Shown one piece after another: positions 4,151-20,242 of a stretch of DNA of 64,000 nucleotides. Source of the stretch: a virus; IMG/VR virus record IMGVR_UViG_3300021356_000011, positions 10,606 to 74,605 of that record. One strand, 5' to 3'. The position numbers and the translations under genes were made by a program. The notes under the pieces were generated by a model, which saw only the letters and a program-made list of their open reading frames with translations, ran no database searches and was not told where the DNA came from. Positions within the stretch are counted from its first letter, which is position 1. Every line of letters starts with the position of its first letter.

Positions 4151-5211
4151 GTAAAATTGACTGGCAGTGTCCTAAATGTCTTGTCGTTTTTCCTAACGTC
4201 CCTGATCCTGGCGACAAGGAGATTACTCACCGCTGCCGACCATCTCGTGGTCTTGGTGATACAGTCAAGAAGATCATCGACGTTGCATCTGGCAGTAAGA
4301 TCAAGCAGTGTACTCCATGCAAGAACCGACAAGGCAAACTCAACGCTGCCTTTCCATCTGCAATGCCAACCTCTTACATCACAACTGAATTACTTGCCAC
4401 TCTCAGTATCCAGATAGCAAGCAAGCTTCCAGCAAAATGCATTGTCATCGGCATGGCTCGCAGTGGCATGCTGCCTGCTTCAATAATCGCCACCTACAAC
4501 CATTGCAGTTTGTACTCCTTAGACCTGACCAACAAGACAATTAAAAATACTGGCTCAGGTCGCAGAGCGAATCAGAGAGTAGGCATCGAGATTATTCTCG
4601 TTGACGATTCGGTTTGGAGTGGCACCTCAATGAAGGAAGCAGAATCAATTGTCAAAGACACATTCCCTGAGTCCAAGATCCACAAGGTAGCAGTCATCGC
4701 AAGACCTGCGAGCATGAAAGTCTTAGACCACTTTGCTATTCTTCAGAACTTCCATTTCCTCGAATGGAATTTTCCCAACGCTGAGTTTACTAAGAACTAC
4801 GCATTCGACATGGACGGTACGTTGTGCGACGACTTCACTGAGCCTGATGACGATGATGGCAAGCGATACCTGAAGGCGATGAGGAACATGCCTGCGACGG
4901 CAATCAAGCCGCACAAGTATCCAATCAACATCATCACCGCAAGGCTTGAGAAGTACCGTGAACCCACAATCAAATGGCTGAAGGATCAAGGCTTTGTGAT
5001 TGGCAACCTGCACATGGCACCGTGGAAAGACAAGCAGGAACGAGAGCAGAACGACATCATCGCCTGGAAGTCCCAGGTCATCAAAGACAATGGCTACGAT
5101 GGGATGGTTGAATCTAATCCATTCATCGCTGAAGGTATCTTCGTTAAGACTCAGAAGCCTGTTATCTGCAATACAAACAAACAGCTACTGCTTCCGCAAG
5201 GCATGCGATAA
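4147..5211 (+). CDS. Fusion: Cys-rich 'GLGD' domain + type I phosphoribosyltransferase + HAD-like domain
   Basis: ATGA overlap start at 4147; CxxC...RGLGDTV...CTPC..R..LN N-terminus; PRPP-binding loop IILVDDSVWSGTSM; HAD motif I FDMDGTL and motif II IITAR. Confidence 0.75.
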   Translation: MSKIDWQCPKCLVVFPNVPDPGDKEITHRCRPSRGLGDTVKKIIDVASGSKIKQCTPCKNRQGKLNAAFPSAMPTSYITTELLATLSIQIASKLPAKCIVIGMARSGMLPASIIATYNHCSLYSLDLTNKTIKNTGSGRRANQRVGIEIILVDDSVWSGTSMKEAESIVKDTFPESKIHKVAVIARPASMKVLDHFAILQNFHFLEWNFPNAEFTKNYAFDMDGTLCDDFTEPDDDDGKRYLKAMRNMPATAIKPHKYPINIITARLEKYREPTIKWLKDQGFVIGNLHMAPWKDKQEREQNDIIAWKSQVIKDNGYDGMVESNPFIAEGIFVKTQKPVICNTNKQLLLPQGMR

Positions 5212-6819: not shown

Positions 6820-6956
6820 TTGATTAACAACTCCTTTTCATCATCCTCAAGTTCAAGTTTATCTAAGAGATCACCAAGCAAGCGGTAGACTTCGCCTACC
6901 GACCTGCCTGAACGATACAGTAACTGCTTAACCTGTCGATCTAGTAGTCCTACCAA
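6762..6956 (-). CDS. Small hypothetical protein
   Basis: Fills the gap between annealase and helicase; TTG start; overlaps the helicase start. Confidence 0.4.
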   Translation of the reverse strand: MVGLLDRQVKQLLYRSGRSVGEVYRLLGDLLDKLELEDDEKELLIKCRTYLQSSMDVLESQKRL

Positions 6957-7747
6957 CTTGCTCCCTCCACTGGATCCTGAGTCCCTGCGTACTTTTCCAG
7001 CATGGCAACATCCGCTTCCGCTAAGTATGCGAGTGTCATCTGATACGCTGCGGCTGATGCCTTGCCTCGTGGTGGATCATTGGTCCACCCTTTCATTAGA
7101 TACTCAATGTATCCACGATTCTTATCGTGAATCTCTGCGATGCTCATACCCTTGTGCTTGCCGAAGTCAATGACATATGCACCGGGATCGTTTGCCTCCA
7201 CTGCCTTTAGTTGCTCATCAATCCAACTCTCAGGCTTTGGCTCCGCCTTAGCTTTTGGCTTTGGTGCTGCTGCTGATCGAGGCTTGCTGGAAGCAGGCTG
7301 ACGGTTCTGATATTTGTCGCCATCATGCTTGCCCAGGTAAACCGATGCGGCAACTCCCAGGTAGCTCAACGTCTTGCCGATAGCATCAGTCTCTGCTGAC
7401 TTGACTGCATCGTCGTCACCTCGACCATTAATCTCAGTGCCTCCCGTATGCCAAGCTGTATAGCCAATGTCACCTGACTCTGGATCTTTGAACCATGCCT
7501 TGGCTCGAACGAAGATGATGGTCTTGCCACCGAAGTCTTCACGGCGATAAGGATCTACTTCTAATCCCCATCCAATACCAATGGGACCAAAGACATGGGT
7601 CATGACCTCGGCTCTGTGCATTGGGTCAATACTGGAAAGCTTCGCTCCACCTGGGATCCGCTTCACAAACTCAGGATCAGGATCTTTCAGTGCATTCCAC
7701 CACCGCATGTTAGTTTGCATCTCGTCCTCTTGAATTCCACGATACAT
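6950..7747 (-). CDS. Rad52/Sak-like single-strand annealing protein with C-terminal FGKHKG domain
   Basis: SIDP...VFGPIGIGWG and KSAETDAIGK.LSYLGVA.SVY are Rad52/22-family motifs; C-terminal IDFGKHKG..I.EI....GYIEYL. Confidence 0.8.
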   Translation of the reverse strand: MYRGIQEDEMQTNMRWWNALKDPDPEFVKRIPGGAKLSSIDPMHRAEVMTHVFGPIGIGWGLEVDPYRREDFGGKTIIFVRAKAWFKDPESGDIGYTAWHTGGTEINGRGDDDAVKSAETDAIGKTLSYLGVAASVYLGKHDGDKYQNRQPASSKPRSAAAPKPKAKAEPKPESWIDEQLKAVEANDPGAYVIDFGKHKGMSIAEIHDKNRGYIEYLMKGWTNDPPRGKASAAAYQMTLAYLAEADVAMLEKYAGTQDPVEGASW

Positions 7748-7758
7748 ATCATTCCCTC

Positions 7759-8481
7759 TCAAATCTTTGGTAGTAACTTATTGGCAAGCTCACGCAGTGC
7801 TTGCACATCCTCTAACAAGTAGTCCCTAGCAAGAGATTCATCCTCTCTTGCCACCTGGTGAAACTTGTCGCCTCGGAAACCACAAGTCTTTGCTGGAATT
7901 CCGAATGCCGCACATAGCTCATCGAATTTCGGCATGTCGAAGCTGCGGTTGTATCCGCTGCCATGTCGAAGCCATACCTTGGCAAGGGCAACGAATGTAC
8001 TAGGAGTCTTGCCAAACTCGTTGAATACTTCCGTACCCACAATGCCGTTGATATTGATTCCGAGAATGGCACAACGATTGGCGAGAAATGGAAGGTCAAA
8101 GGAATCTCCATTGTACGTCACAACCATGCCACCTCGACGAAACACATCACCGATCTGTTTGACAAGATCCTCGATGATCGTCGCCTCGTCTCTCAGATCT
8201 ATTTCGACTACGGCGTCTCCATAACTCTCTCGGAAGTACCCTACGCCGACCACCTGACCAATCAATGGATTCAGAGCGGCTCGCGAGTACACCTTGCCAT
8301 AATGCTGTTTCTTTCTTTGGTCTTTGTTCTCCTTCCATTCCTGTTTCTTTCTGGCTATGGTTTCTGGTCTCTTGGCATTACCAAGCTTCGGAGTTTCATC
8401 GTCCTCGTAGGCAATGATTTCCTCGATGACTCGGTACGACTGTGGACCTGTTTCAATGTCGAAGTACAACCTGTCAATCAC
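7759..8481 (-). CDS. DnaQ/PolB-like 3'-5' exonuclease
   Basis: ExoI FDIET, ExoII YNGDSFDLPFL, ExoIII YLLEDV; next to the annealase. Confidence 0.85.
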   Translation of the reverse strand: MIDRLYFDIETGPQSYRVIEEIIAYEDDETPKLGNAKRPETIARKKQEWKENKDQRKKQHYGKVYSRAALNPLIGQVVGVGYFRESYGDAVVEIDLRDEATIIEDLVKQIGDVFRRGGMVVTYNGDSFDLPFLANRCAILGININGIVGTEVFNEFGKTPSTFVALAKVWLRHGSGYNRSFDMPKFDELCAAFGIPAKTCGFRGDKFHQVAREDESLARDYLLEDVQALRELANKLLPKI

Positions 8482-8765
8482 CGTTGCTGTCTCCCCCAGC
8501 CAAGACTTCTATGCCTCCTTGGCCTGTTGTTTTCCTCTGCTAAGTCTGCATGCGTATCGTAGGCATGCTGAATCTTTGACGCTCTTGTTTGAATCCAAAT
8601 ATCGATAATCCCCTCCTGAGATTTACTGATCGTTCCGACTGGCTGCTTCAGTAACTGATCAACGTAGTATTCAACCAGCGGTTGAAACAATGGCAAGCCA
8701 AACTCGTCGAATCCGATGACGAACATATCGCTCTCAGTAATATCACCATCCTTGATCACTCTCAC
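8478..8765 (-). CDS. Hypothetical protein
   Basis: Tightly packed ORF with GGAGG-type RBS. Confidence 0.55.
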   Translation of the reverse strand: MRVIKDGDITESDMFVIGFDEFGLPLFQPLVEYYVDQLLKQPVGTISKSQEGIIDIWIQTRASKIQHAYDTHADLAEENNRPRRHRSLGWGRQQR

Positions 8766-9065
8766 TTAATCGCCCTCCCTTTGAGCGTTTAAAACATACC
8801 TCTCTGTAATCTTCTGAGCCTTGACATAGAAGTCCTCTTCTATCCCTTTTGATACTGCTCGGTATCGTTTGATGTACTCCTTTCCGTAGCTAACGATGTC
8901 CTTCCGCATTTCATACAGCAGCTTATCCAATGTCTTTGGCATCTTCCTGCTGGGATAATGGCTGAGTCTCATGCGAACATAGTGGACGATGTCGTCCTGC
9001 TTTATCCTGACTTCAGCCCTTCCGAGAATGTACTCCCCTCTCAAGTTTTGTTTGATCTTTGTCAT
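8766..9065 (-). CDS. Hypothetical basic protein
   Basis: Tightly packed in the operon; Lys/Arg-rich. Confidence 0.6.
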   Translation of the reverse strand: MTKIKQNLRGEYILGRAEVRIKQDDIVHYVRMRLSHYPSRKMPKTLDKLLYEMRKDIVSYGKEYIKRYRAVSKGIEEDFYVKAQKITERYVLNAQREGD

Positions 9066-9067
9066 GC

Positions 9068-9613
9068 CTAGTTCCCAAATGTTACTTGGTCCTCGTGACT
9101 AGTCTGGTCAACGCCACCTCGGAAAAGAGCTAAGGTTTGTTTGGGATCACTGAATGCTTCCCTAGGAACCAGGATCTTCCTTCCGTACAGATGTTCGTGA
9201 TAATCTGGCTTGTAATTCTCAATGATGTCTTTGCTAAATATGTGACCAATGAATTCGATATGCTTAGGGTCGTCTCCTATTCGGAACAACACAAAGAGAT
9301 CCACCTTTTTTGGCTCGTCTGGAAACAGGTGCATCTCCAGTTCCCTGCCTGACCACTCACGAGTCTTTACGTTGACTGTCATTCCATTGAAGATGAAGTC
9401 ATACTTATCCCCTCCGATGTATATGTTTTTATCGATTGGCAATCCAGTAAGCTGACTGAATGCAATCTCACCCAGCGTACCTACCGTAGCGCAGTGGAGC
9501 AGACCTTCATTTCGACGTTGAATCTTGCTTTGACTTGGCTTCTTCTTTGATGCCCTGTCGAACGCAATAGCTGCTGCGTTCCCCCACTCTTCCCTAGTCA
9601 ATGAAATTATCAT
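9068..9613 (-). CDS. Putative PD-(D/E)xK-family nuclease-like protein
   Basis: GEIAF...GGDKYDF...VNVKT pattern; start chosen at the ATG after AGGAGGG. Confidence 0.5.
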   Translation of the reverse strand: MIISLTREEWGNAAAIAFDRASKKKPSQSKIQRRNEGLLHCATVGTLGEIAFSQLTGLPIDKNIYIGGDKYDFIFNGMTVNVKTREWSGRELEMHLFPDEPKKVDLFVLFRIGDDPKHIEFIGHIFSKDIIENYKPDYHEHLYGRKILVPREAFSDPKQTLALFRGGVDQTSHEDQVTFGN

Positions 9614-9791
9614 TCTCGCTCCCCTCCTTCTTTGCAGGCAATTCTTTCCTGCGAATATGAAAGTCCATGGGACCATCGAAGCAAAGTCTCACGCTGTCCT
9701 TCTTTGAGACCTTGCTGATGGTCAACTCTAATACCTTGCCACCAATTTCAATCACTGCGCTTTCGTTATACTTCCGTGTAATAACCAGCAT
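9594..9791 (-). CDS. csrA: CsrA/RsmA-like RNA-binding translational regulator
   Basis: MLVITRKYNESAVI...VRLCFDGPMDFHIRRKEL matches the CsrA fold signature MLxLTRKxGExIxI...VRxGxxAPxxxxIxRxE. Confidence 0.8.
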   Translation of the reverse strand: MLVITRKYNESAVIEIGGKVLELTISKVSKKDSVRLCFDGPMDFHIRRKELPAKKEGSENDNFID

Positions 9792-9893
9792 TTGCCCTAC
9801 TCCGCTATCCATTTTGCGATCAACCATGCCATGCCTGTAAACACTGGCGAACAATACATCAAACCGATTGCGATCCTGTCGTGCTTATCCATC

Positions 9894-10145
9894 TCACAGC
9901 CCCTCCCTTGCGACATTCGCCGCTGGCACAAAGCGAGCATGACCTCCGTCTAATTTGAATTTCCCGACGAAAAAATCATCTTCAAAGTAAAGCAAGGAAC
10001 CAACTGGAGTCTGCTTAGGTTCTATTCCCGCTTCTCTCCTTTTTTTTCGTTCCTCAACTATCCCTTCTAACTCTTTAAGCAGGCTTGCCATTCCCTGCAA
10101 GTCTTCGTAGCTGAGAGAAAACTCCTCTTTATTTTTTTTTGCCAT
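9894..10145 (-). CDS. Hypothetical protein
   Basis: TAATG coupling with the upstream gene. Confidence 0.55.
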   Translation of the reverse strand: MAKKNKEEFSLSYEDLQGMASLLKELEGIVEERKKRREAGIEPKQTPVGSLLYFEDDFFVGKFKLDGGHARFVPAANVAREGL

Positions 10146-10393
10146 TACATCGTATCTCCAAATTCGCGGTACAACTGATCCACTGCTGCGGCATCTTCCT
10201 TCAGCATCTGCTCGTCGTAATCGATGCCTTGGTCATCGTAGACTCGTCGCATCATATCCTCGGTGGATTCTCCACTACTGCTCGGTGCGTAGGTTGGTGC
10301 TGAACCACCACCTGCACAACCAAAGAAGATGATCCCCGCAACCAAGAAGATTGCAATCAACAGGTAAGCTTTGATTTGATCTTGTCTTGTCAT
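10145..10393 (-). CDS. Putative small lipoprotein/membrane protein
   Basis: Hydrophobic N-terminal stretch ending in FFGC, then a Ser/Gly linker. Confidence 0.55.
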   Translation of the reverse strand: MTRQDQIKAYLLIAIFLVAGIIFFGCAGGGSAPTYAPSSSGESTEDMMRRVYDDQGIDYDEQMLKEDAAAVDQLYREFGDTM

Positions 10394-10395
10394 CG

Positions 10396-10803
10396 TTAGT
10401 TCCCTTCCGTATTAAGACTGCGTTCCAAGTAATCCATTGCATTGAATTCAACCAGGTCTTTGCGAGAGAGAGTGCTTAAGATTCGTATCAACTCACTCTC
10501 TGTTTTCTGTAGATGGTTCACCTCCCTTTCCCAATGATGATGTCGCATTAATAAGTCTCGGTATTTCATCGCCAAGACTTCAACCTGTTGGTCATCAAAC
10601 TTGAACTTTCCGTATGTTCTTACTCGGTTGTCATTTCCTCGTTTGCCTGACTCGACTCTCGCAACCTTTGTCCTCTCACCACTCATAAACTTGTACCTCT
10701 GTGTCAATATGAAAGACAACGTAGCTTCCGCATTTAGGATCCGATGTTGGACGGCAACCTCTTTGGTCACCATTAATAAACTCATCCACTCTCCACATGA
10801 CAC
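10396..10803 (-). CDS. Hypothetical protein
   Basis: ORF in the operon; start uncertain. Confidence 0.5.
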   Translation of the reverse strand: MSCGEWMSLLMVTKEVAVQHRILNAEATLSFILTQRYKFMSGERTKVARVESGKRGNDNRVRTYGKFKFDDQQVEVLAMKYRDLLMRHHHWEREVNHLQKTESELIRILSTLSRKDLVEFNAMDYLERSLNTEGN

Positions 10804-10862
10804 CTCCGTGAAAGAATGTGTCGCCTCCTGCTAACTCATAAATCGGCTTCATGTAAAACCCC

Positions 10863-11231
10863 CTACCACCAACTGGTGTAAATGATTTCGTATCCGTTGT
10901 GAATTTGATTGCGTGCTGTGTCGATAAATTCTAGATCGTGATCGAAGTAATACTCGTCTGAATTGCCTCCGAAGAAAAACCCTTGTGTCTCTGGCATTGC
11001 CCCACCCTTGACAGCAACCTCCAGGTCTTGCAGGTCTTCGTCGCTGAGTTCAACGACGGCGCAATTGAAGTCTCCTTCATTTCCGCGATCTCGCCATAGG
11101 CTTTCCATGTAACCTTGGAGATTCGGGTGCTTCCTCCAGTAACCGATCTCCGTCTTGTCTTCCCAGTTCACGTTACCATCTTCATCGATGTACCTGCCAG
11201 TTACGGCATATGCATATTGATCTAATCCCAT
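10863..11231 (-). CDS. Conserved phage early protein (MGLDQY...YWRKH...W family)
   Basis: Recognisable MGLDxY / YWRKHxxL / C-terminal YxSWW pattern common in phages; function unknown. Confidence 0.75.
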   Translation of the reverse strand: MGLDQYAYAVTGRYIDEDGNVNWEDKTEIGYWRKHPNLQGYMESLWRDRGNEGDFNCAVVELSDEDLQDLEVAVKGGAMPETQGFFFGGNSDEYYFDHDLEFIDTARNQIHNGYEIIYTSWW

Positions 11232-11389
11232 TACTCTTCCCTTCCTTTTTTCTCGCCGTCAGCGAATCCATCATCATAAGCGGCTTCAATTTGTGCTTGC
11301 ACAATGTTGCAAAGCATATCGACATAGACAGGATCGATGCCGTTTAACGCCTTAACGATGACGTTCCATTCCAGAATTGGATTCTTCAT
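11231..11389 (-). CDS. Small hypothetical protein (52 aa, not in ORF track)
   Basis: GGGAGGG RBS, MKNPILEW..., stop overlaps the next ATG (TAATG). Confidence 0.55.
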   Translation of the reverse strand: MKNPILEWNVIVKALNGIDPVYVDMLCNIVQAQIEAAYDDGFADGEKKGREE

Positions 11390-11423
11390 AGAAACCCTCC
11401 CAAGGTTTATGGTGAATGATCAT

Positions 11424-11576
11424 CAGTTGCCCCCGTCCAACCACCACAGTGGACGAGGGCGAAGTGGCAACCACTCAGATTAAACTGGATGTAACCCGAT
11501 CAGCTTTGTGGAGTCAGAAAACCTGCATGAATATGGAAAATGCAGGAGAGGATCAACTCCAGCCAATAGCTGCCAC
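11424..11576 (-). ncRNA. Candidate structured small RNA with a CUGUGGUGGU loop
   Basis: 185-nt intergenic gap with several hairpins. The 11-bp stem at 11429-11460 needs a G.U pair that forms only on the minus strand. Further inverted repeats at 11463-11475 and 11522-11546. Confidence 0.55.
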
Positions 11577-12469
11577 TACATTGAAAGTATCAACTCCTCG
11601 GCTCGCTGAACCGTAGAGTCCTCCAGGACACTCACAGAGCGATTAAACTCTTTCTGTTCACTGGTCATACCCTTCTCGCCATTACGAGTAACATCGTGTT
11701 GTCGGTAACCTTGGATCGCATTGAAAGCCATCCACCCAGTCGTCACAGGGTTAGCTAGGCTTGGCGTCTCTAGGTTAAGCTTGTGCGACTCACGCATAAC
11801 ACGCGACCAGATAGCGCTGATCTTGTCGTTGTGCTTAGTGGTGGATTGCTTGGCTTCACTCTTTGGTGCTGGGTAGATCTCTGCCAGCAAGTGCTTGAGG
11901 TTGATACGCTTTGCATGCATGTTGCGACAATGGTCAACCACTTCGTCCCACTTGGCGACGATATCATAGAACTGGTCCTGGATCGTAGCGATCCTGGTCT
12001 CCAGGCTTTTGGTGTGTTTGATGCTGAAGTTGATTTCGCTTGAGTTGCGAACCATCATGAGATTACTGCATGCGTCACGCTGCAATGGCAATCGACCTCT
12101 TGCAGGTAAGCCGCCAAGACCAAACCACAAGTCAAGTTGAGGCCAAACAGAATCGCCCTTAACGATCTCGCGACGGTATTTGTCGTCTGGACGAATGCGA
12201 ACGTAATGACCTTCTTTCCATCGTGCTTTCACTTTTGGATTATGAAACCCAGGTAAGCCAAGAACAGATTTAATGATAGGACGCAAGTGATGGAGTTGAT
12301 GTGGGATGTATCGCTCAGTCACTGAGCCTCTCCCGACTGGCTTACCAGTCTCGGTGAATAGACCATAGTAACCGGTCTCCTCGCCGTTTGGACCGAATAG
12401 AGGTTGCTTGATAATGTGACGGGGAAACTTGTCGAGTTGTGATTCGATTGCGATTGGTAGAACTGTCAT
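11576..12469 (-). CDS. DUF932/DUF945-family phage protein
   Basis: Y.P.Q, RxxCSNxM, IKHT and W.AFNA...Y..H motifs. Confidence 0.75.
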   Translation of the reverse strand: MTVLPIAIESQLDKFPRHIIKQPLFGPNGEETGYYGLFTETGKPVGRGSVTERYIPHQLHHLRPIIKSVLGLPGFHNPKVKARWKEGHYVRIRPDDKYRREIVKGDSVWPQLDLWFGLGGLPARGRLPLQRDACSNLMMVRNSSEINFSIKHTKSLETRIATIQDQFYDIVAKWDEVVDHCRNMHAKRINLKHLLAEIYPAPKSEAKQSTTKHNDKISAIWSRVMRESHKLNLETPSLANPVTTGWMAFNAIQGYRQHDVTRNGEKGMTSEQKEFNRSVSVLEDSTVQRAEELILSM

Positions 12470-12548
12470 GGTGGTACTTCCTTTTGGTGAATGTGAATGA
12501 GAATGATGGGCAGTTTGGCAACATGCCCAGGTTGCGGAATGGATATCC

Positions 12549-12974
12549 CTAGTTTGCTGCCAGTGCTTTTTCTAGGCACTTGCTGCACTTAGCCCCTGAT
12601 TGGGCTCCACTGTTGTGGTACTGAACGAACACTTGGTTGTTGCAACCCTCCGCTCTGCAACTACCCTTCTTGATTGTGACCATGGGACTCGTGTTTGGTC
12701 GATGACTCCCGAAATTGCCGTAGTAGCATTCAGTCGTCGATGACAAGCAGACCTTGTCGGTAAGATCACCTTGCAGACACATACAAGCCCATTTGTAAGC
12801 TTGCGTCCAGGTCTCAAACATCTTTCGACCTTCGATGACCTCAAGCTTGAATCCGTCCATCAGAATCCCATTAGGGAAATTCTCGTCGTACTCTGCTTGG
12901 CTACTGAATGAATAGCATATCCAAGGAGTATTAGCCTGAGTGTCAATGACATTCCAAGTCTTCTGCGCCTTCAT
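12549..12974 (-). CDS. Hypothetical early protein with C-terminal Cys cluster
   Basis: GGGAGGG RBS before ATG 12974; ACCACCAC box at 13002. Confidence 0.6.
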   Translation of the reverse strand: MKAQKTWNVIDTQANTPWICYSFSSQAEYDENFPNGILMDGFKLEVIEGRKMFETWTQAYKWACMCLQGDLTDKVCLSSTTECYYGNFGSHRPNTSPMVTIKKGSCRAEGCNNQVFVQYHNSGAQSGAKCSKCLEKALAAN

Positions 12975-13042
12975 GTTGTTGCCCTCCCGAGGCATAAGAA
13001 AGTGGTGGTTGTCACTCAATTTAGATGAGCGACTGGTAAAAC

Positions 13043-13381
13043 TTAACGACTCTGGTTTTCAGGATCAATACCGATTGAATCAAAATTTAAAGAATCGTGT
13101 TTTTCGTTTAGCTCTTTTGCAAATCCGATGTAATCAAAGCCGTCTGGCCCCAGGTACTTAAGACTCATCGGTTGCGAATCAAGAAACCTTGAATAGTCTT
13201 CGACCTTTGTCTCTTTTTCTGACTCTTTTTTGATCTCTTGTTGTGGCTCTTCCTCCGCTTTGCCTGAATAAATCAATACCGATGCGGCAATCAGGTCGTT
13301 CTGAATCTGCTCTGGGATTCCTGGCATGCTGCTGTAACCGTGGATCCTCTCCGCCAACTGTTTACGTTCACTCTCGTCCAT
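13043..13381 (-). CDS. Hypothetical early protein
   Basis: AAGGA upstream of ATG 13381; start uncertain. Confidence 0.5.
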   Translation of the reverse strand: MDESERKQLAERIHGYSSMPGIPEQIQNDLIAASVLIYSGKAEEEPQQEIKKESEKETKVEDYSRFLDSQPMSLKYLGPDGFDYIGFAKELNEKHDSLNFDSIGIDPENQSR

Positions 13382-13462
13382 GTCATCAATCCTTATCAAC
13401 TTGGTGATCTTTTTGTACAACAATATGAGTATATCTCATCCTTGTAATTGAATTGCGAGCGA

Positions 13463-13702
13463 TCAACGGTCCAGCAGATCGTTGAAATCTTCCTCAATCG
13501 CTTCTCTCCAACTCTCACCATACTTTTTGACCAGACTGTTCACGATGTCATCGAGTGCCTCGTCCAGATCGAATGGACAATCGAATTCTGGAACCGCATC
13601 GATTAACTCTACCATTTCGTCGATGCTCCACTCTCGTTGAGGCTCTTCTCCGGCTCTCCATGCTGCCTCTGAACCTGGACAGCGTCCTTCCCATTGAATC
13701 AT
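13463..13702 (-). CDS. Hypothetical acidic early protein
   Basis: ATGA coupling with 13699..14028. Confidence 0.55.
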   Translation of the reverse strand: MIQWEGRCPGSEAAWRAGEEPQREWSIDEMVELIDAVPEFDCPFDLDEALDDIVNSLVKKYGESWREAIEEDFNDLLDR

Positions 13703-14028
13703 CCTGCCAACTCCCAATTAATGGTTTCGATATCGAAAAATGCCCACCTACTTGTGACCTTCTCATTCACCTCTTGGCGAATCGTTGCGTGTAGACCATG
13801 GTGGGTGGTGTATGTCATCTCTATCGGGTGTGTCTTCTGCTTGAGTTTAACGAAAATCCTGACCTTCTGCCCTAGTCTTTGTGCCTGGTTATCTTCCAAG
13901 AGCAGATTCTTGATCTGCCTACGCAGGTTCTTTTTGTACTCCTGAATACAGAAATGGCAGATCGCCATATCGAATAGTCTGAACTGTGTCCTATCGCCGC
14001 ACTGCGTGCATGGTTTCGTCGTCGTCAT
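13699..14028 (-). CDS. Hypothetical Zn-finger early protein
   Basis: CxxC...CxxC N-terminus; GGAG RBS. Confidence 0.6.
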   Translation of the reverse strand: MTTTKPCTQCGDRTQFRLFDMAICHFCIQEYKKNLRRQIKNLLLEDNQAQRLGQKVRIFVKLKQKTHPIEMTYTTHHGLHATIRQEVNEKVTSRWAFFDIETINWELAG

Positions 14029-14103
14029 TGCGTGGAATCTCCATAAGTGAAAGCAAAGAAAACAACCAGCAAGGTTTCCCCTGCCGGCTGTCCTGGCGTC
14101 GTC

Positions 14104-14520
14104 CTATTCGCCTCTACAAACTGGGCCAATCCCTAATCTAATCGATTCGGGGTCGGTTAGTTTTCGATTGCATACGATGCATCGACCCTCGACCTGGAAC
14201 TCAATTCCTTTTGCGTGGAATCTGCTAGGGTCTTCAATCATCCTCGCGATTTTCTCCAGCGCCGTGCCTCGGTGCCTGCTCCATACGGCGATTCTGCCGC
14301 CATCCTTGACAAACCCGAAGCCTCTGAAGTCGGTTTCGTTGCATGGTCCAGATAGGATTGAAATAATCCGTTCACCTGGGGCGAATTTTGCATCGTCTTT
14401 CTGCGTCTTGATTTTTACGGTGCGGTGCTGACCCGTCTCCGGATTGGTCATCGTCACACACCCGTTGTGTGTGGACAAATCAAAGTCATCGATGCTGGTT
14501 TCCAGTTCTGCGGTTGCCAT
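14104..14520 (-). CDS. DUF6011-domain protein
   Basis: C-terminal GRCIVCNRKLTDPESIRLGIGPVC is the DUF6011 signature. Confidence 0.85.
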   Translation of the reverse strand: MATAELETSIDDFDLSTHNGCVTMTNPETGQHRTVKIKTQKDDAKFAPGERIISILSGPCNETDFRGFGFVKDGGRIAVWSRHRGTALEKIARMIEDPSRFHAKGIEFQVEGRCIVCNRKLTDPESIRLGIGPVCRGE

Positions 14521-14609
14521 TGTCCTGGCTCCTCTTGTGGTGGTGGGAAGTGAAAACGAGGAGAGCAGGCGCTACCCTGCCCTGGCTCGGTGTCACTCAT
14601 CGCCATGAA

Positions 14610-14888
14610 TCACGCTAGTTTTTGCGGTTCACCAATCAATGCGAGCGTCTCATCGTACAGCGTCAAGTACCGATTCTTGTCTGTGCATGTGACCAAGCAG
14701 TCGCCTGAATCATAAAATCTCGTTCCCTTCACGCCATCAGTGACCAGTCGAACCGTCAATGGTGAAGTGTATTCCTTCCCATCGATGACTGTTACATGCT
14801 CAACGGTGAATTGAGGCGTCGCCTCGTCGCTACCGAATAAACCAGTGGCGTCCAGATTTCGAGTAAAACGGGTAACTTCAAAACTCAT
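14610..14888 (-). CDS. Hypothetical early protein
   Basis: Start moved to ATG 14888, which follows a (CAC)6 box and an AAAGGG RBS. Confidence 0.6.
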   Translation of the reverse strand: MSFEVTRFTRNLDATGLFGSDEATPQFTVEHVTVIDGKEYTSPLTVRLVTDGVKGTRFYDSGDCLVTCTDKNRYLTLYDETLALIGEPQKLA

Positions 14889-14925
14889 TGCAAACCCTTT
14901 CGTTGTGGTGGTGGTGGTGGTGTTT

Positions 14926-15216
14926 CTATTCAAAATCGAATTGTGCAAACCAATACCGAACGTCGCCTTCATCCGGCGTAATATCGTCCCCATCAGCGAA
15001 CCAATACTCACAAAATCCATCGAGCGTACATTCAAAATCACAATCCGGAGACGGGATTAACTCGGATTCAATTGACCATTCTCCATCCTCACGGCGTACT
15101 ACAGGATTCATCGGAATCACCGTATCGCACGACTGAAAATTGCGGGGATTAAAATGACGGCGGTTGTACTCTCTGGCGATTGAAATGACAGATTCAAAAG
15201 ACCCGCGCAAGATCAT
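14926..15216 (-). CDS. Hypothetical acidic early protein
   Basis: AGGAGG RBS plus ACCACCAC box. Confidence 0.6.
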   Translation of the reverse strand: MILRGSFESVISIAREYNRRHFNPRNFQSCDTVIPMNPVVRREDGEWSIESELIPSPDCDFECTLDGFCEYWFADGDDITPDEGDVRYWFAQFDFE

Positions 15217-15321
15217 AGCTAAGCCCTCCTAAGGCTATGTGGTGGTGAATACTGGCAACACTGCCAATCCTGTGGGGTTCCTGGCGTGGACCTGGAACCC
15301 TCAAGGACGAGCAGTGGTGGC

Positions 15322-16041
15322 CTAGTGTGCTGCAAAGAACACGTTACAGAGTCCACCGATGCAAGCGTTGCATGCGATCGTTTTCCTGCTGCCGGAGCAG
15401 GTAACCTCGTCGACTCCTCGCCTAAGCTTAGGACAGAATAAAAACTCCTCCCCCTCAATGCTCAGTTTTTTGGGGGCGTCGCTCATGCGTTTCTGACCTC
15501 GTTTTTTGGCTGGGTGGAATTCCTCAGCATTGTCCACCCAAGCGAATAGGGTGAAGCCTGCCGACCTGGCCTGCTCCATGTCATCGGCGTTGTGAATGCT
15601 GGCGTAGAGCGTGACATGCTCCCCCAACATGTCGACGATCCGAGGATCATATTCGTGGGTATAGGCCCACATTTCAGGAAGCTCAAAATCCAAGTCTAGC
15701 AGGCTCTCGATGGCCCAACGTATCGATTCCAGGTACTCCAGGTCGAGTGTGCCATCTTTTAGAAAATCACCGCGCTCGTGGAATCGTACTTTTTTCCCCT
15801 TGGCTGCTGCGGTGATGAGCATGGCGCGGATTACATTCCGCTCTGTGACCATTCCAGCGAGCCCATTTTTTCGGCTATGTGGAAATCGTGCCTCCGTTTT
15901 ATCGGCATAGCATCGGTGTTTCCCTGCGTCATCCCTGGATGGATGGAATTGGCAGGAGGTGGGGCAGGAATCGCCAACTGCGCGTGATGTCACGACTGCC
16001 TCGGTGCCGACTGCCGCGTTGCCGTTTTCTACATAATACAT
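15322..16041 (-). CDS. Gp88-like Cys-rich (Fe-S/radical-SAM-like) phage protein
   Basis: SCPxSC...CYA, RFHxxGDF, WAYTH, CP...TC...CxxC motifs. Confidence 0.7.
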   Translation of the reverse strand: MYYVENGNAAVGTEAVVTSRAVGDSCPTSCQFHPSRDDAGKHRCYADKTEARFPHSRKNGLAGMVTERNVIRAMLITAAAKGKKVRFHERGDFLKDGTLDLEYLESIRWAIESLLDLDFELPEMWAYTHEYDPRIVDMLGEHVTLYASIHNADDMEQARSAGFTLFAWVDNAEEFHPAKKRGQKRMSDAPKKLSIEGEEFLFCPKLRRGVDEVTCSGSRKTIACNACIGGLCNVFFAAH

Positions 16042-16141
16042 GGTTCTGATCCTCTAAAATGTGGTGGTGGTGTGCCTGGAACCCTCCCGGCATCCTGTCG
16101 GGCTCCCTGGCGGAAGCCCTCGAGGGCGACGGGGGTCGATA

Positions 16142-16375
16142 TTAATCCCGATTACCATATCGTTCGAGCCGCTCCTGAAAAGCCATTTTCTCGCCTTGCT
16201 TTGCCAGGTGGGCATCGATCCAATCGCGACATTCAAATACGTCAGATTTCCGACCTACTAACACTGGCCTACTGTCGATAATGTCGAGTTTTCCCATTCT
16301 GCGAATTAGGTTGAATCCTCGATATCGCCAGTGGTTAGGGGCTACTCTCTCGGGTTTGATTCGTTTTGTGGTCAT
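16142..16375 (-). CDS. Hypothetical early protein
   Basis: ACCACCAC box, AAAGG RBS, MTT start. Confidence 0.6.
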   Translation of the reverse strand: MTTKRIKPERVAPNHWRYRGFNLIRRMGKLDIIDSRPVLVGRKSDVFECRDWIDAHLAKQGEKMAFQERLERYGNRD

Positions 16376-16411
16376 GGTTTTTGCCTTTCGTGGTGGTGGT
16401 AGTGCCTTGAG

Positions 16412-16996
16412 CTATCGCTGGAAACGACCCAGGATCAGCTTCCTGGTATCTTCGGCGTCCTGCCTGTCATCGGTGTAATAGTCGGCATCTGGGTTCCTTT
16501 TCCCGTCCTGGTCATAGGCTTTGCAATGGAACTCGCCCCATTGGTTAGCGCGTTTGGGGATGGTGATTTTTACGGTGAGGCGAATGGGATCGATTGCCAT
16601 AGCTTCGGCTCTCATTTTGGTGGTAGTGGCTGCGACAATGTAGCCTGATTCGCTCACCACAAAATAAACCGATGGACGATCACGGTAGGCTACCGAAACA
16701 ACGCGACCATCGGCGGCGATATCGTAGGCGGCATTGTATTGGGCCAGTTTTAGGAACTCGAACCCATCAACGCGCCTTCCCACCAGGGAGCCTGCGACGC
16801 GATAAAATGCCTCTTGGCATTGATCGTAGGTGTAACCACATTCGCGTGCGTTGTCCTGAGCGTGGTAGGCATGTTCCAGGATGGAGCCCAATAAAAAACA
16901 CTCATATTTTGGATCTGGCTCGTCGAGTTGGTCGAATCCGGCGCTGATGTTGGCCTCGACAATTTCGGTGATGGTGGGGCGTTGTGTGGTGGTCAT
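16412..16996 (-). CDS. Hypothetical early protein
   Basis: Start moved to ATG 16996 (box plus AAAGGGA RBS, MTTT). Confidence 0.65.
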   Translation of the reverse strand: MTTTQRPTITEIVEANISAGFDQLDEPDPKYECFLLGSILEHAYHAQDNARECGYTYDQCQEAFYRVAGSLVGRRVDGFEFLKLAQYNAAYDIAADGRVVSVAYRDRPSVYFVVSESGYIVAATTTKMRAEAMAIDPIRLTVKITIPKRANQWGEFHCKAYDQDGKRNPDADYYTDDRQDAEDTRKLILGRFQR

Positions 16997-17028
16997 GGCT
17001 TTTTCCCTTTCGTGGTGGTGAATGTTGG

Positions 17029-17397
17029 CTATCGTCCTGGTTGGCGGATTTCGACGTTGATGAACTCCGGCAAATAAAGGCTGGACCATCGTTCGGCATC
17101 GATGTGATTATCTGCCCAGCGTACCGGCGAAACGGTAACGCCTGGTCGCTCCTCCCCGAAAATCAACTCAGCTAGAGGGTATCCGTTGGAGTCCTGGAAG
17201 CCGTCGAGATCCTTGCCGGATACAGCTGGGTGACAGTGATAGGTTTTCCCGTCGATCAATGCGACATCCAAGGCCCATTGGCTGCGATTTGGCTCCCAAA
17301 CCAGGAAAGTGCGATATCCGCCGATGGCATAGGGTGCGTGATAAACGGTGACGGTAGGAATGGCGTTGTTGTCGATTGTGCCGCGTGTGGTGGTCAT
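17029..17397 (-). CDS. Hypothetical early protein
   Basis: Start moved to ATG 17397 (box plus GAGAGGA RBS, MTTT). Confidence 0.6.
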   Translation of the reverse strand: MTTTRGTIDNNAIPTVTVYHAPYAIGGYRTFLVWEPNRSQWALDVALIDGKTYHCHPAVSGKDLDGFQDSNGYPLAELIFGEERPGVTVSPVRWADNHIDAERWSSLYLPEFINVEIRQPGR

Positions 17398-17485
17398 AGT
17401 TCTGATCCTCTCAAAATGTGGTGGTGCAATACAAATAAAACAAGCCAGGTCCAAGCCCCTCACAGGGGCTCGGTGCTGGGCTGTC

Positions 17486-18208
17486 TTACTCTGAATCTGC
17501 GAGTGCGATAATCTCGGTAAATGCGTGGCCTACCCTGGCGTTCTCGCCCCATTCTGAACTGTTCTCGTCATTGCTCAACCATTCCACCATTTCGGGGGTA
17601 TATTCGCGAGCGTTGCCAGAATTCAAAACTGCCTCAATCCAGGCGTTGGTATCGATGCTGCAATCACTCAACCAGCCGTCCCCGTCCCTGGGAATATCGA
17701 TCAAATCGTGGCCAGCCTCGCCGCCGTAGTATTGCGGCATGCAGCGATATACGTGCCCTGATTCCTCCTCGCGAACATAGGCGGCATCACCCAACCAGTA
17801 GCAGTCCTCGGTGTCCAGGATATCGGCTAGGCGGCACGTGGGATCGCTTGAGCAGCCTTGGCAAGCCTCCGAGTTAATCGTGTCTGCAATCTCGTCGAGA
17901 GATGGAACCATTTCGAGAGATTTCGATTTTGGCCCGAATCGATCCCATTCCTCCTCAGAGATGGGCTCCCTGGATACCTCATCGCAATACCAGCCAATCG
18001 TCCAGCCAAAAAACTCAGTATCGGCTAGCGAATTCCAACAGATAAAAAACCTCTCGTGGTCAATGGAAATACCGACGGGGTTGCTGTTGTGGATCCAGTC
18101 GGATTCGTCACAAGCATAAATCGTCCAGCCGAAATCGCGATCAAAATCGTTGCTGATGTTGCCGGTGTACTCGCTGCAAGCTTCGGCGTAGGTGGTGGTG
18201 GTGGTCAT
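17486..18208 (-). CDS. First gene of the leftward arm; very acidic hypothetical protein
   Basis: GAGGA RBS before ATG 18208; MTTTTT encoded by (ACC)5; Asp/Glu/Trp-rich. Confidence 0.65.
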   Translation of the reverse strand: MTTTTTYAEACSEYTGNISNDFDRDFGWTIYACDESDWIHNSNPVGISIDHERFFICWNSLADTEFFGWTIGWYCDEVSREPISEEEWDRFGPKSKSLEMVPSLDEIADTINSEACQGCSSDPTCRLADILDTEDCYWLGDAAYVREEESGHVYRCMPQYYGGEAGHDLIDIPRDGDGWLSDCSIDTNAWIEAVLNSGNAREYTPEMVEWLSNDENSSEWGENARVGHAFTEIIALADSE

Positions 18209-18470
18209 CGTGTCGTTCCTCGTTTTGAGAGAGAGAGAAAAGGTTGTCGCCGCCGAACCACTCGGGGCGTGCTGGTTTTTGCTGATCCAGCTCTGGCAGT
18301 ATCGGCAAGAGGAGAAAGAAGCGAACAAAAATTCCTGGCAAATTCCAGAAATACCTTGCAAACCCTTGCAAAATAACGACTTAAGGTCGTATGGGGTAAA
18401 CCCTAGGTTTTTTGGCGAATCGTCCCAAAAACTAAGTGTCCACCTACTGATTGGTGCCGATTTGGTGGCT

Positions 18471-18600
18471 CCTGGCGTCGACCTGGCGTCGGTGGCGTTG
18501 AATCTGGCACCCTCTCCCTGGCTCCTGGTGGCGCCCTGGTGTGTCGTTGTGGCTCCGGTGGCTCCGAAGCCGTCCAGGGCTGTCCTGGCGTGGTTCCTGG
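18471..18600. repeat. Cluster of eight CCWGG pentamers, including a CCTGGCGTCG direct repeat
   Basis: CCWGG at 18471, 18482, 18517, 18524, 18535, 18574, 18584 and 18596. Confidence 0.7.
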
Positions 18601-19254
18601 CTTCTGGCTTCAGCGTGCTTCGGTGGATTGTCTCACAGCTTCGATCAATCGACTCGCATGCATGGCTGCGGCGATGATGGCAGCGCAGGCGATCAGCCAG
18701 AGCAGCCGAGGCAGACGACGAAGGAGGAAGACGCCGCAGGCGAGGAGCAGGGACCAGAGGGAAAAGCCGGAGGGGATCGCGAGGGGCGAGACGGGGTGAC
18801 CCCCTACAGACACAAATCCATCTCTATCCATCTGTTCGTTTTCATATTTCACGGGGGGTACTCCTTCCTTGGGTTCCCATGTCTGAGTTATGAATTATTT
18901 GTAAAGTGTTGCATGGCTTAACTTTATGGGTTAAGGTGGTGTCATGCAAAACAGCACCTTGGGCAAGTGCGTGCTGTCTCAAAACTGATTCAACATGGAT
19001 CATAAAACTTCGAGATAGTTATTAATTGGCATGCTGGCAGTGCATCAACTGAAAGCGATACTGTTCAGCTACAATGCCGTTGATGCATTTGGGGAGGGGG
19101 CGAGAGCCTCTTCCCCTTTTTATTGCGCTAAACATAGCAAGGATCTGTGATATTGCTTGAAAAACCAGGGAAAAGGTGAGTTGGGGATGTTTTGAGAATT
19201 GCGCTAAGTATCGCAAGCGGTTGCGACTATTTGCGTAACATTGCAAGTCTTAGA

Positions 19255-19282
19255 TTGCATTAAGTGGATAGCGGGATATAAT
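19255..19282 (+). promoter_or_regulatory. Sigma70-like promoter for the rightward arm
   Basis: TTGCAT-16 nt-TATAAT in the divergent intergenic region. Confidence 0.5.
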
Positions 19283-19659
19283 GACTGGCAGTGCATAGCT
19301 GTCCTTGGTTGAATGAGCGAATGGACCTATAGATCTCAGGGAAAAGTTCTCGAAGTCAATCGCGGTAAAGAACAGTTTACTAGCACTCACACAGTCTCAG
19401 AGTATCTAGATGCCCTCCCAAGCTTTTAATGCCTGGGACTGTGACAGAGGGGGGTGGCTTGTCCAGGAAGCAAGGCAAGCTGCCCAACTCCTCTCTATGG
19501 GGAGCTTCCTCGCAGGTCAGGACGCATCGAAGACCTGCCGGTACTGTTAATCGCTCGCATTAGATTACAACACATTGAGCTACATTTAAGAATATCTATT
19601 ATATTGTTGTACAACGAAGATTACCTAGACTCGCATTAATACCCTGACTGGGGGTTAAA

Positions 19660-19836
19660 GTGGCAGTAGAACATGTAATCGAGGGTTTGAAAGAGCGTAT
19701 TGGACGCCAAGCAGCGTTCATTGCACAGTTGAGGGGGAGGATAGCCTCACTGGAGCGAGAGCTTCAGGAGTGCCGTTCTGAGGAGGAGGAAGATGGCAAC
19801 GAAGATATTCGCACCGAAGCGGGAGGAGAGCCCTAG
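19660..19836 (+). CDS. Small coiled-coil hypothetical protein (not in ORF track)
   Basis: GGGGG RBS and GTG start; heptad-like LKERIGRQAAFIAQLRGRIASLERELQE. Confidence 0.45.
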   Translation: MAVEHVIEGLKERIGRQAAFIAQLRGRIASLERELQECRSEEEEDGNEDIRTEAGGEP

Positions 19837-20242
19837 TCGCTACCAGAAGGTAGGTAACTACCAAGTACCTGAACGGTTGGTTGAGCTAGAGGCTAAGGAG
19901 AGCATCACTCTTGAAGAGTACAGGGAGATCCTGCTTGCTCGGCAAGGGATGGTCTTGGATTACTCAGACACTCTTGACGGATGGAACACGGGAGTCTATG
20001 ATCTTCCGTTCGCTGAGCTGATCCCCCTGGGGAAGATTCGGTATCAGCACACTAAACATGGTGGTCGTCAATCTAAGTTTGATGACATGGTTTGGTGCTA
20101 CTACACGGCAATGACGATGGAGTTGCCGTCATGGAGGGTGGAGCAGTTGCTTCACCGAAGGAGTGGGTCTTTTAGACCATATGAGGCAATGAGAGTTTAC
20201 GATGCTGCTCAGGGTCTCATGGAGGATTGTGGTCTCTATTAG
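19793..20242 (+). CDS. Hypothetical protein
   Basis: Strong GGAGG RBS, 149 aa. Confidence 0.65.
   Translation: MATKIFAPKREESPSRYQKVGNYQVPERLVELEAKESITLEEYREILLARQGMVLDYSDTLDGWNTGVYDLPFAELIPLGKIRYQHTKHGGRQSKFDDMVWCYYTAMTMELPSWRVEQLLHRRSGSFRPYEAMRVYDAAQGLMEDCGLY

Follow-up and report, generated by a model that had tools for sequence, protein, structure and literature searches.

About ten of the first-expressed genes of this phage carry a tag built of C and A only, (ACC)n, ahead of the ribosome binding site (RBS), and a conserved structured RNA that follows the DUF932 gene of the same arm presents the reverse complement of this tag in its apical loop. By likeness to the c4 and GcvB RNAs, the loop RNA may act as a silencer that turns the box-bearing early genes down together, a candidate reading put forward tentatively and with somewhat less than an even chance of being right. 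The first-pass annotation of the window (the whole 64-kb stretch of DNA that was analysed) had proposed such a switch; its observations were confirmed and extended, and its interpretation is partly supported.

(ACC)n boxes at the early gene starts

The word ACCACCAC has 22 matches in the 64-kb window, as compared with 1.57 ± 1.27 expected, and at least 22 matches were reached in none of 100 shuffles. Eighteen of the 22 copies lie on the minus strand, i.e., the strand of the early genes, between 13002 and 18205. Every early-arm copy has the same sense and is placed either 14–27 nt 5′ of one of eight ATG codons or immediately 3′ of one of three. The start regions are listed below ((−), minus strand; energies are predicted for pairing with the loop).

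18191–18205 (−): (ACC)5 immediately 3′ of the ATG of the first early gene (17486–18208); −11.0 kcal/mol
17417–17426 (−): leader box CACCACCACA, gene 17029–17397; second copy after the ATG, 17387–17394
17011–17020 (−): leader box CACCACCACG, gene 16412–16996; second copy after the ATG, 16986–16993
16389–16400 (−): leader box ACCACCACCACG, gene 16142–16375
16060–16072 (−): leader box CACCACCACCACA, gene 15322–16041 (DUF7227/GP88-like); box kept in the related locus L008
15238–15247 (−): leader box CACCACCACA, gene 14926–15216; the same leader fronts an unrelated ORF in L008
14904–14922 (−): leader box C(ACC)5ACA, gene 14610–14888
14536–14546 (−): leader box CCACCACCACA, gene 14104–14520 (DUF6011); top predicted target, −13.5 kcal/mol
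13002–13009 (−): leader box ACCACCAC, gene 12549–12974, 27 nt 5′ of the ATG; kept in L008/L009, and an orphan leader without ORF in L012/L015
11576–12469 (−): DUF932 gene (Pfam DUF932, E 2.6e-12), start region GUACCACCAUG with a 7-nt loop match; −9.2 kcal/mol

The 3′ end of the box is separated from the ATG by 20, 15, 14, 19, 22, 16, 16, and 27 nt for the starts 17397, 16996, 16375, 16041, 15216, 14888, 14520, and 12974, respectively, and in seven of these eight genes the leader box is followed by A or G, at 12974 by U. Gene 18208 opens with ATG(ACC)5 and genes 17397 and 16996 open with ATGACCACCACA, so that the ACC repeat after the ATG doubles as Thr codons. According to the count of the box word in the window, minus-strand genes downstream of the hairpin described below have no same-sense box. 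In all these respects (placement, following base, box-like openings, absence downstream) the first-pass description of the boxes was accurate. The number of ACC units per box varies from under 3 to almost 6, and comparison of the leaders revealed no conserved sequence at a fixed distance upstream of the box.

The region was compared with eight related loci, from metagenomes and one MAG, that represent four lineages with DUF932 70–88% identical. In orthologous leaders of distant lineages (L012:6301, L013:2291, L014:1104) the flanks are unrelated and the box and the Shine-Dalgarno (SD) sequence are kept, thus the boxes are under selection. The only candidate host genome shows no enrichment of the word ACCACCACCAC (9 matches vs. 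14 for the backwards control), which argues that the box word is phage-specific. The source phage is uncultured and aquatic, and the sole hint at its host is one contig binned in a Planctomycetota MAG.

A conserved RNA element after the DUF932 gene

The DUF932 gene and the next ORF (11231–11389) are separated by a gap of 186 nt, at the border where ORFan early genes give way to exonuclease/helicase genes. The RNA of this gap folds with −68.2 kcal/mol (z = −3.1 vs. shuffles), and the element that it contains is kept in the relatives. Its parts are as follows:

11411–11578 (−): conserved structured RNA of ~168 nt that starts at the UAG stop codon of DUF932 and ends with helix P5; alignment of seven copies from four lineages
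11566–11577 (−): 5′ strand of helix P1, AGUGGCAGCUAU, which overlaps the DUF932 stop codon, closes the 5′ three-way junction, and competes with P5
11477–11497 (−): helix P3 (GGGUUA / UAAUCU) with a freely varying loop; two pairs changed on both sides
11465–11477 (−): 5′ strand of helix P5, UGAGUGGUUGCCA, also the 3′ strand of the competing P1; 11–12 pairs kept in all lineages
11429–11460 (−): helix P4 of 11 bp, among them a conserved U.G pair, with the GU-rich loop on top; 11 of 11 pairs kept in six of six sequences, one via C-G to A-U
11440–11449 (−): apical loop CUGUGGUGGU, 10 nt, reverse complement of ACCACCACAG, proposed seed
11413–11425 (−): 3′ strand of helix P5, UGAUGAUCAUUCA

Read from 11460 to 11429 on the minus strand, the hairpin is composed of an 11-nt arm GCCCUCGUCCA, the 10-nt loop, and an arm UGGACGGGGGC, with one U.G pair; two further pairs could close the loop down to 5 nt. 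In each of the seven copies the fold of the early strand is more stable, by 7–19 kcal/mol, than that of the opposite strand, hence the hairpin is an RNA-level element of the early strand. The stem and its GU-rich loop, the match of the loop to the box, and the dependence of the stem on the early strand were thus correctly noticed in the first-pass annotation. The hairpin does not, however, stand alone, as it caps a longer helix within a 168-nt element that has two competing folds. P1 belongs to the minimum free energy (MFE) fold of six of the seven copies and P5 to that of L013, and the two folds lie 0–7 kcal/mol apart.

A covariance model of the 3′ domain (R1) finds a single copy in every locus that covers the region 3′ of DUF932, with E values of 1e-19 to 1e-24. 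In this domain 98.8% of pair cells are paired, as against 28–49% with the partners slid, and five pairs changed on both sides. Within P5, two pairs changed on both sides and three compatibly on one, and the P4 stem of L012/L015 shows a compensatory C-G to A-U exchange plus one added G-C pair. The 10-nt loop is identical in the window, L006, L007, L008, L011, L012, and L015, and is therefore invariant in three lineages whose DUF932 proteins are 74–88% identical to that of the window; the loop of P3, in contrast, has unrelated sequences between lineages. In L013 the stem is identical and the loop differs, being AUCGGCGGU-type and 2 nt shorter, so that the loop conservation holds in three of the four lineages.

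The reverse-sense box word is present on the early strand in two copies in 64 kb (at 11440, and at 10304 inside a coding region) vs. ~0.8 expected. This count is by itself insignificant; what is improbable is that the word should lie in the apical loop that caps a conserved RNA helix and should be conserved at that place. When both strands of 5000–20000 were searched by cmscan under permissive filters, none of 4227 Rfam families, including C4 (RF01695) and GcvB, matched at E ≤ 1.

Candidate silencing by loop-box pairing and the rival readings

A match of the loop CUGUGGUGGU to ACCACCAC(A/G) is found in ten start regions, all in its own arm. When hybridisation and opening energies are summed, these ten early start regions (g1–g8, g12, and DUF932) are predicted to pair with −9.2 to −13.5 kcal/mol, and the other 14 minus-strand start regions with −5.1 kcal/mol or weaker. 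Ranking of 84 start regions by loop pairing puts early genes at nine of the top 11 places; the loop thus sets the box-bearing start regions far above all others, as was expected for early leaders. Opening is calculated to cost 0.1–2.9 kcal/mol for the boxes and ~2 kcal/mol for the loop. By these calculations, loop-box pairing is thermodynamically feasible; a 9-bp duplex within a 10-nt loop is sterically strained.

It is proposed that the boxes would present G-free, unstructured RNA where translation of about ten early cistrons is initiated, and that, judging by analogous tracts, they probably serve the ribosome as standby sites or act as enhancers. The long P5-P4 hairpin, which lies right after DUF932 and ends the early block on its 3′ side, would display the exact box antisense in its apical loop, and pairing could start once this distal element has been transcribed, or after its excision from the long message. 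The paired positions relative to the AUG would be −13 to −36 for leader boxes, −7 to +2 for DUF932, and +2 to +12 for the boxes after the AUG; because the boxes are so placed, pairing would hide the 30S landing site and cause a joint decrease of the early cistrons. Pairing in vivo, repression, and its timing are inferred, as is the enhancer role of the boxes.

Two points of the first-pass annotation are not supported. The separate RNA, which was said to be transcribed later, finds no backing in the window itself: no promoter-like site for the structured RNA is recognisable there, and no U-tract stands 3′ of the helix (AACUGAUGAUC follows P4, CACCAUAAAC follows P5, and the terminator scan has no entry at this place). 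An intrinsic (Rho-independent) terminator in the window was ruled out on the same ground, and a U-tract directly 3′ of P5 was found only in L011 and L013. Secondly, covariation of loop and boxes was not seen among the four independent lineages, the box being invariant throughout. In L013 the loop has changed without any change in the single visible box, ACCACCACC, and the new loop has no match in the nine leaders that are visible, from which it follows that loop-box coupling is not obligatory.

An autonomous role as enhancers would account just as well for the conservation of the boxes. A possible, rather doubtful, reading is that the boxes are C/A-rich enhancers or standby sites in their own right and that the RNA after DUF932 acts in cis, as a bistable P1/P5 switch through which termination at DUF932 is coupled to expression further downstream, as a processing site, or as an attenuator/terminator, while the loop match is non-regulatory or the loop binds something else. 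P1 and P5, which share one strand and lie 0–7 kcal/mol apart in all copies, are both possible in every lineage, and P1, as it starts in the stop codon, would be disrupted by a ribosome that terminates there; these competing folds beside the stop codon point to some cis-acting function, independent of the loop. The location of the element at the boundary of the ORFan early genes and the exonuclease/helicase genes, the terminator-like U-tracts of L011 and L013, and the altered loop of L013 beside its retained box speak for the same. Such a reading leaves to chance an exact match of 8–10 nt to the word that is most over-represented in the arm, located in the sole apical loop invariant across three lineages, a coincidence of ~1e-4 or less per loop. 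The lack of a U-tract in the window and in L012/L015 means, moreover, that the conserved function is not termination, and the lineages have different genes 3′ of the element, which itself is kept.

It appears unlikely that the boxes are protein sites, bound either by a ssRNA-binding translational regulator (the logic of T4 RegA) or by a DNA repressor on oriented intergenic operators (the logic of Cluster A stoperators), with the loop copy as an extra site in reverse sense. Short, asymmetric, single-orientation repeats at gene starts of the non-structural arm do resemble stoperators and Start-Associated Sequences (SAS), several Cluster K phages also carry one reversed copy (PMC3203893), and several early proteins have zinc-ribbon-like motifs or no known family. 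However, the variable ACC number and the use of the repeat as Thr codons do not fit a fixed-length operator, a ssRNA-binding protein would not bind the complementary loop, and the reversed copy resides in a helix whose G.U pairs are specific to the RNA strand. The protein-family scans revealed neither a repressor nor an integrase nor a recognisable RNA-binding protein, although most early proteins have no known family.

Least probable, and very unlikely, is that the boxes are mainly recombination joints, i.e., microhomologies at cassette boundaries for swapping early ORFan genes between phages without a direct expression role: the same leader cassette fronts unrelated genes (window 15216 and L008:5912), near-identical leaders front different genes within the window (17397/16041 and 16996/16375), L012/L015 have the orphan leader, and the box-bearing block has a higher GC and a gene content that differs among close relatives, but the strict SD spacing, the copies after the ATG, the box kept amid diverged flanks, and the antisense copy in a conserved loop are left unexplained, and such joints are compatible with an expression role, hence no true alternative.

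Comparison with known systems

The candidate silencer may be compared with c4 RNA of P1/P7, in which loop sequences block an RBS of the phage's own genes and the RNA comes from the operon of its targets (PMC12197685). The precursors of c4 and of the CI RNA of satellite phage P4 are cut from a longer transcript, as stated in PMC5499578 (citing Hartmann, 1995; Forti, 1995). Here too an exposed loop is complementary to sites near RBSs of own-operon genes, as in c4/P4 CI (Rfam C4, RF01695). The differences are that there are about ten targets here, whereas c4 has one or two sites; that the target is a C/A box 5′ of the SD or just 3′ of the AUG and not the RBS itself; and that the loop RNA is part of a bistable element without an Rfam C4 match. 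As to a context of immunity or lysogeny, neither an integrase nor a repressor or antirepressor turned up when 40 ORFs were scanned against Pfam and PHROG, a weak result since many ORFs have no family.

The enterobacterial GcvB uses a GU-rich seed to silence ACA/CA enhancer motifs just 5′ of the SD in many targets (PMC3879156), and a GU-rich unpaired seed and C/A-rich targets near the SD are present here as well. In GcvB, however, the seed is in a linear region and not in a hairpin loop, and an sRNA of this type has its own promoter and Rho-independent terminator, neither of which is visible in the window. The RNA described here is phage-encoded and directed at the phage's own genes, has no Rfam GcvB match, and its targets are a strict ACC repeat as opposed to loose CA-richness.

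SAS/ESAS of Cluster K mycobacteriophages are short asymmetric repeats of single orientation before starts of non-structural genes, common to unrelated gene families; the authors, to whom their function was unknown, allowed for a partner of either RNA or protein, and several genomes have one copy in reverse sense (PMC3203893). The SAS is a 13-bp GGGATAGGAGCCC-type motif that includes the SD and lies 3–7 bp from the start (PMC3203893). Membership of the boxes in the SAS was rejected, as they are (ACC)n, separate from the SD and 14–27 nt before the start; their reversed copy, furthermore, is in a conserved RNA loop.

Stoperators of Cluster A mycobacteriophages are numerous oriented 13-bp sites in short intergenic gaps along operons, which act on DNA via the phage repressor in lysogens. 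The oriented repeats at gene starts are alike, whereas here the repeat length is variable, the reversed copy has an RNA-specific structure, and the protein-family scans brought up no repressor, most early proteins being without a known family.

Finally, 5′ tails of CA repeats constitute standby sites, and G-free C/A tracts by the RBS without local pairing raise initiation (PMC5934652). The boxes, predicted to be open at the low unpairing cost given above, are similar. Published examples comprise engineered tails and the MS2 coat cistron, whereas the repeat described here is natural, conserved, and of fixed sequence, which suggests sequence-specific recognition beyond the mere absence of structure.

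Start-associated boxes of the early genes

The IMG/VR record behind the window is 74.6 kb long, and the window represents its bases 10606-74605. No close cultured relative of the record was found: among GenBank phages neither megablast of the region nor tblastn of the DUF932 protein gave a match, and TerL has distant matches only (<=30% identity). The genes of the window are arranged as follows:

18361 to 5212, minus strand: minus-strand arm, opened by about 13 small genes, most of them without a known family, and then the DUF932 gene
after the DUF932 gene, minus strand: exonuclease-like genes and a helicase gene
plus-strand arm, plus strand: structural genes, among them terminase and a 2363-aa portal fusion

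Pfam and PHROG scans of 40 ORFs revealed neither an integrase nor a repressor. The portal fusion (ORF 32207-39298) combines two recognisable parts, a Mu-type portal at E 8e-41 and an ART-PolyVal ADP-ribosyltransferase domain at E 1e-16, with a long tail of no known family.

Starts of about ten early genes bear a C/A tag built of ACC units, termed here the box. The box word ACCACCAC occurs 22 times in the window vs 1.57 +/- 1.27 expected, with 18 minus-strand copies at 13002-18205. When the strand was read directly and gene starts were placed with the guidance of the Shine-Dalgarno (SD) sequence, the box was located 14-27 nt 5' of the ATG, shortly before the SD, in genes 17397, 16996, 16375, 16041, 15216, 14888, 14520 and 12974 (named by start coordinate). 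ACC units number from fewer than three to almost six per box, and the next base is mostly A or G. The first early gene begins ATG(ACC)5, two further genes begin ATGACCACCACA, and the start region of the DUF932 gene reads GUACCACCAUG. The box is absent at the mid-arm genes 14028, 13702 and 13381, as well as at every gene past the hairpin that follows the DUF932 gene. The box-bearing block (14001-18000) has a GC content of 0.52-0.54 vs 0.45-0.49 across most other window DNA, and its GC skew is unlike that of the remaining minus-strand arm. A partial box, CUACCACAGGAG, abuts the SD in the leader (30536-30580) of the late gene 30581-31648.

No sequence is conserved at a fixed distance 5' of the box, and the repeat number is variable, hence the box does not belong to a longer promoter. 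Nor does a sigma-70-type promoter precede each box, given one weak by-eye fit and a scan of window 5000-20000 in which such sites are depleted (5 matches vs 16.2 +/- 4.3 in shuffles). The same interval has more terminator-like hairpins than its shuffles (24 vs 14.1 +/- 3.9), among them 14562-14583 and 14059-14094 within the early arm. A general host signal was likewise rejected, since the candidate host MAG has no box enrichment.

In IMG/VR, relatives were found neither by DUF932 peptides nor by the leader cassette pattern or the P3-P1 core pattern of the RNA described below, and the eight matches to its P4 stem with any loop are all unrelated chance hairpins. DUF932 homologues P0002-P0013 sit on ENA contigs and include a cluster on 15 contigs of <=32 kb; P0013 is an L013-like cluster. 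Alignment of DUF932 homologues led to nine metagenome loci, plus one contig placed in a Planctomycetota MAG by binning. These loci are grouped by DUF932 identity to the window:

lineage 1, the window's own group: L006-L010, 85-88%
lineage 2: L011/L014, 80%
lineage 3: L012/L015, 71-74%
lineage 4: L013, 70%

The binned contig is L015 (JAYYHM010000390.1, 13 kb, of the L012 lineage); its binning is the sole hint at a Planctomycetota host, and binning of a phage contig by co-abundance is equally possible.

Boxes are present in all four lineages. One gene has orthologous leaders in L012, L013 and L014 that retain the box and the SD amid unrelated flanks, which argues that the box, like the SD, is under selection. 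The boxes are very probably selected RNA elements associated with gene starts. A second class of leader, with a pyrimidine-rich tract (uuuucuuu...) and then UGGGAGGGCA, is present in the early arms of L012, L013 and L014, before genes that have no ACC box.

A conserved RNA with two competing folds

Conservation extends over the whole sequence between the DUF932 stop codon and about 11411, though the next gene varies between lineages. This stretch (11411-11578, minus strand) is a new conserved RNA outside Rfam, where it has no match, and it has two competing folds at the stop codon. It occurs once per genome, and its covariance model R1, built on the 3' domain, detected the known L015 copy alone across 151 Planctomycetota genomes (G001 included). 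Five parts make up the 3' domain:

helix P3
helix P5, 12 positions
a small internal loop
helix P4, 11 bp
a 10-nt GU-rich apical loop

In the R1-fitted alignment, standard pairs fill 98.8% of pair cells vs 28-49% with slid partners, and five helix pairs show changes on both sides; the sample is small (six sequences from four lineages) and the alignment is biased toward R1, but the changes were also read straight from the sequences. In seven of seven copies, folding favours the early (minus) strand over its complement by 7-19 kcal/mol, in agreement with a conserved U.G in P4 and G.U pairs in P5, which together indicate that the element functions at the RNA level and from the early strand. The hairpin formed by P4 and its loop (11429-11460) is most likely part of a conserved functional RNA of that strand. 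The conserved CUGAUGA/CUGA recalls a hammerhead or a C/D-box k-turn; both were rejected, as Rfam gave no match and these bases are explained by P3 and P5.

Helix P1 can form in place of P5 when the latter's 5' strand pairs with the 12 nt that follow the DUF932 stop codon; the 5' strand of P1 begins within that codon, and P1 closes a three-way junction. Within window 11463-11577 (minus strand), P1 and P5 are mutually exclusive, because both need GUGGUUGCCA, and both remain possible in all four lineages. The minimum free energy fold has P1 in six copies and P5 in L013, with the states 0-7 kcal/mol apart. A ribosome halted at UAG would mask the P1 strand and favour P5, and so translation termination could flip the fold. 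Directly 3' of P5, a U-tract makes a terminator-like end in L011 (2495-2506) and L013 (4862-4872), and it is absent in the window and in L012/L015. Since P1 and P5 compete at the stop codon and some lineages have terminator-like ends, the element probably has some role in cis regardless of the function of its loop, and it merits study even without a link between loop and boxes.

Proposed pairing of the loop with the boxes and its alternatives

Three lineages share the apical loop, antisense to the box, without any difference, whereas the P3 loop shows no sequence conservation. In L012/L015 the apical loop is unchanged even though the stem below it has undergone one compensatory pair change and gained one pair. 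RNAcofold of the RNA with each leader was uninformative, because a pseudoknot-free cofold cannot represent pairing of a loop to its target, and it was replaced by the sum of hybridisation and opening energies. This sum is -9.2 to -13.5 kcal/mol for start regions g1-g8, g12 and DUF932, and -5.1 kcal/mol or weaker for the 14 other minus-strand start regions; the predicted opening cost is 0.1-2.9 kcal/mol for the boxes and about 2 for the loop. The expectation of the first-pass annotation that early leaders would rank top was borne out: early genes take nine of the first 11 places when 84 start regions are ordered by plain duplex energy, a ranking that largely restates the motif. The late leader 30536-30580 ranks third of the 84. 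An internal pseudoknot of the loop with CCACA of the 5' domain was rejected, as it is unconserved in L013 and lies in a lineage-specific insert in L012. The only other reverse-sense copy, GUGGUGGU (early strand, 10304-10311), lies within an 82-aa ORF (10145-10393), recurs in L006-L008 and has the look of coding sequence rather than of a second regulator.

That the loop regulates the boxes by pairing with them is a tentative reading to which we give slightly less than even credence. A protein-free timer that shuts off early genes in a lytic phage is a little more doubtful. In such a timer, the first cistrons would be marked by a fixed (ACC)n enhancer tag. A bistable RNA embedded in the 3' untranslated region would be made only after the polymerase has arrived at the far end of the early block, and its apical loop would display the antisense of the tag, so that all tagged cistrons would be silenced simultaneously. 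It speaks against the regulon that the window shows neither a promoter nor a terminator from which a separate RNA could arise.

The main alternative, that the boxes are autonomous translation enhancers and the RNA acts in cis, is somewhat less likely than the pairing in our estimate, and it is favoured by L013, which speaks against the regulon. There the stem is as in the window, and the loop is altered at several positions and 2 nt shorter. A changed loop of this type is, e.g., AUCGGCGGU, which a box of the AACCGCCGAU type would match; the single box visible in the 3.8 kb upstream on the L013 contig is unchanged, and none of the nine leaders visible there matches the new loop. Box sequence is invariant across the lineages, and there is thus no variation against which the loop could be scored. 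Boxes that serve as protein-binding sites are improbable, and boxes that serve as recombination joints more improbable still, although the latter are compatible with the other readings and accord with the movement of leader cassettes between unrelated genes. Window 15217-15252 (the 15216 leader) corresponds to L008:5862-5911, there before an unrelated ORF; within the window, the leader of 17397 is near-identical to that of 16041, and that of 16996 to that of 16375. An orphan leader (L012:9868-9900, L015:4321-4353) has a box and a GGGAGGG SD without start codon and ORF, at a position where the window has gene 12549-12974. By sequence, box-plus-SD leaders look like mosaic joints.

Relation to known regulators

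Shut-off of phage early genes, as far as it is known, is mostly protein-based (T4 RegA, repressors, RNA polymerase modification). To our knowledge, each of the antisense RNAs described from phages (c4, CI, sar, OOP) controls one or two sites, in temperate phages. If the proposed pairing is true, one RNA loop would serve some ten tagged cistrons of a phage that is probably lytic, as a compact and portable tag/anti-tag translation switch; natural C/A-repeat enhancers would then occur beyond enterobacteria, and the element would be a phage 'own-regulon' antisense RNA of a class not in Rfam. The boxes resemble the Start-Associated Sequences that Cluster K mycobacteriophages carry and for which no partner is known yet (PMC3203893). 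The element is a member of neither the c4 nor the GcvB family, as neither Rfam model matches it; closest in logic are c4 of P1/P7 and CI of P4 (PMC12197685, PMC5499578) and, likewise, GcvB acting on C/A enhancers (PMC3879156).
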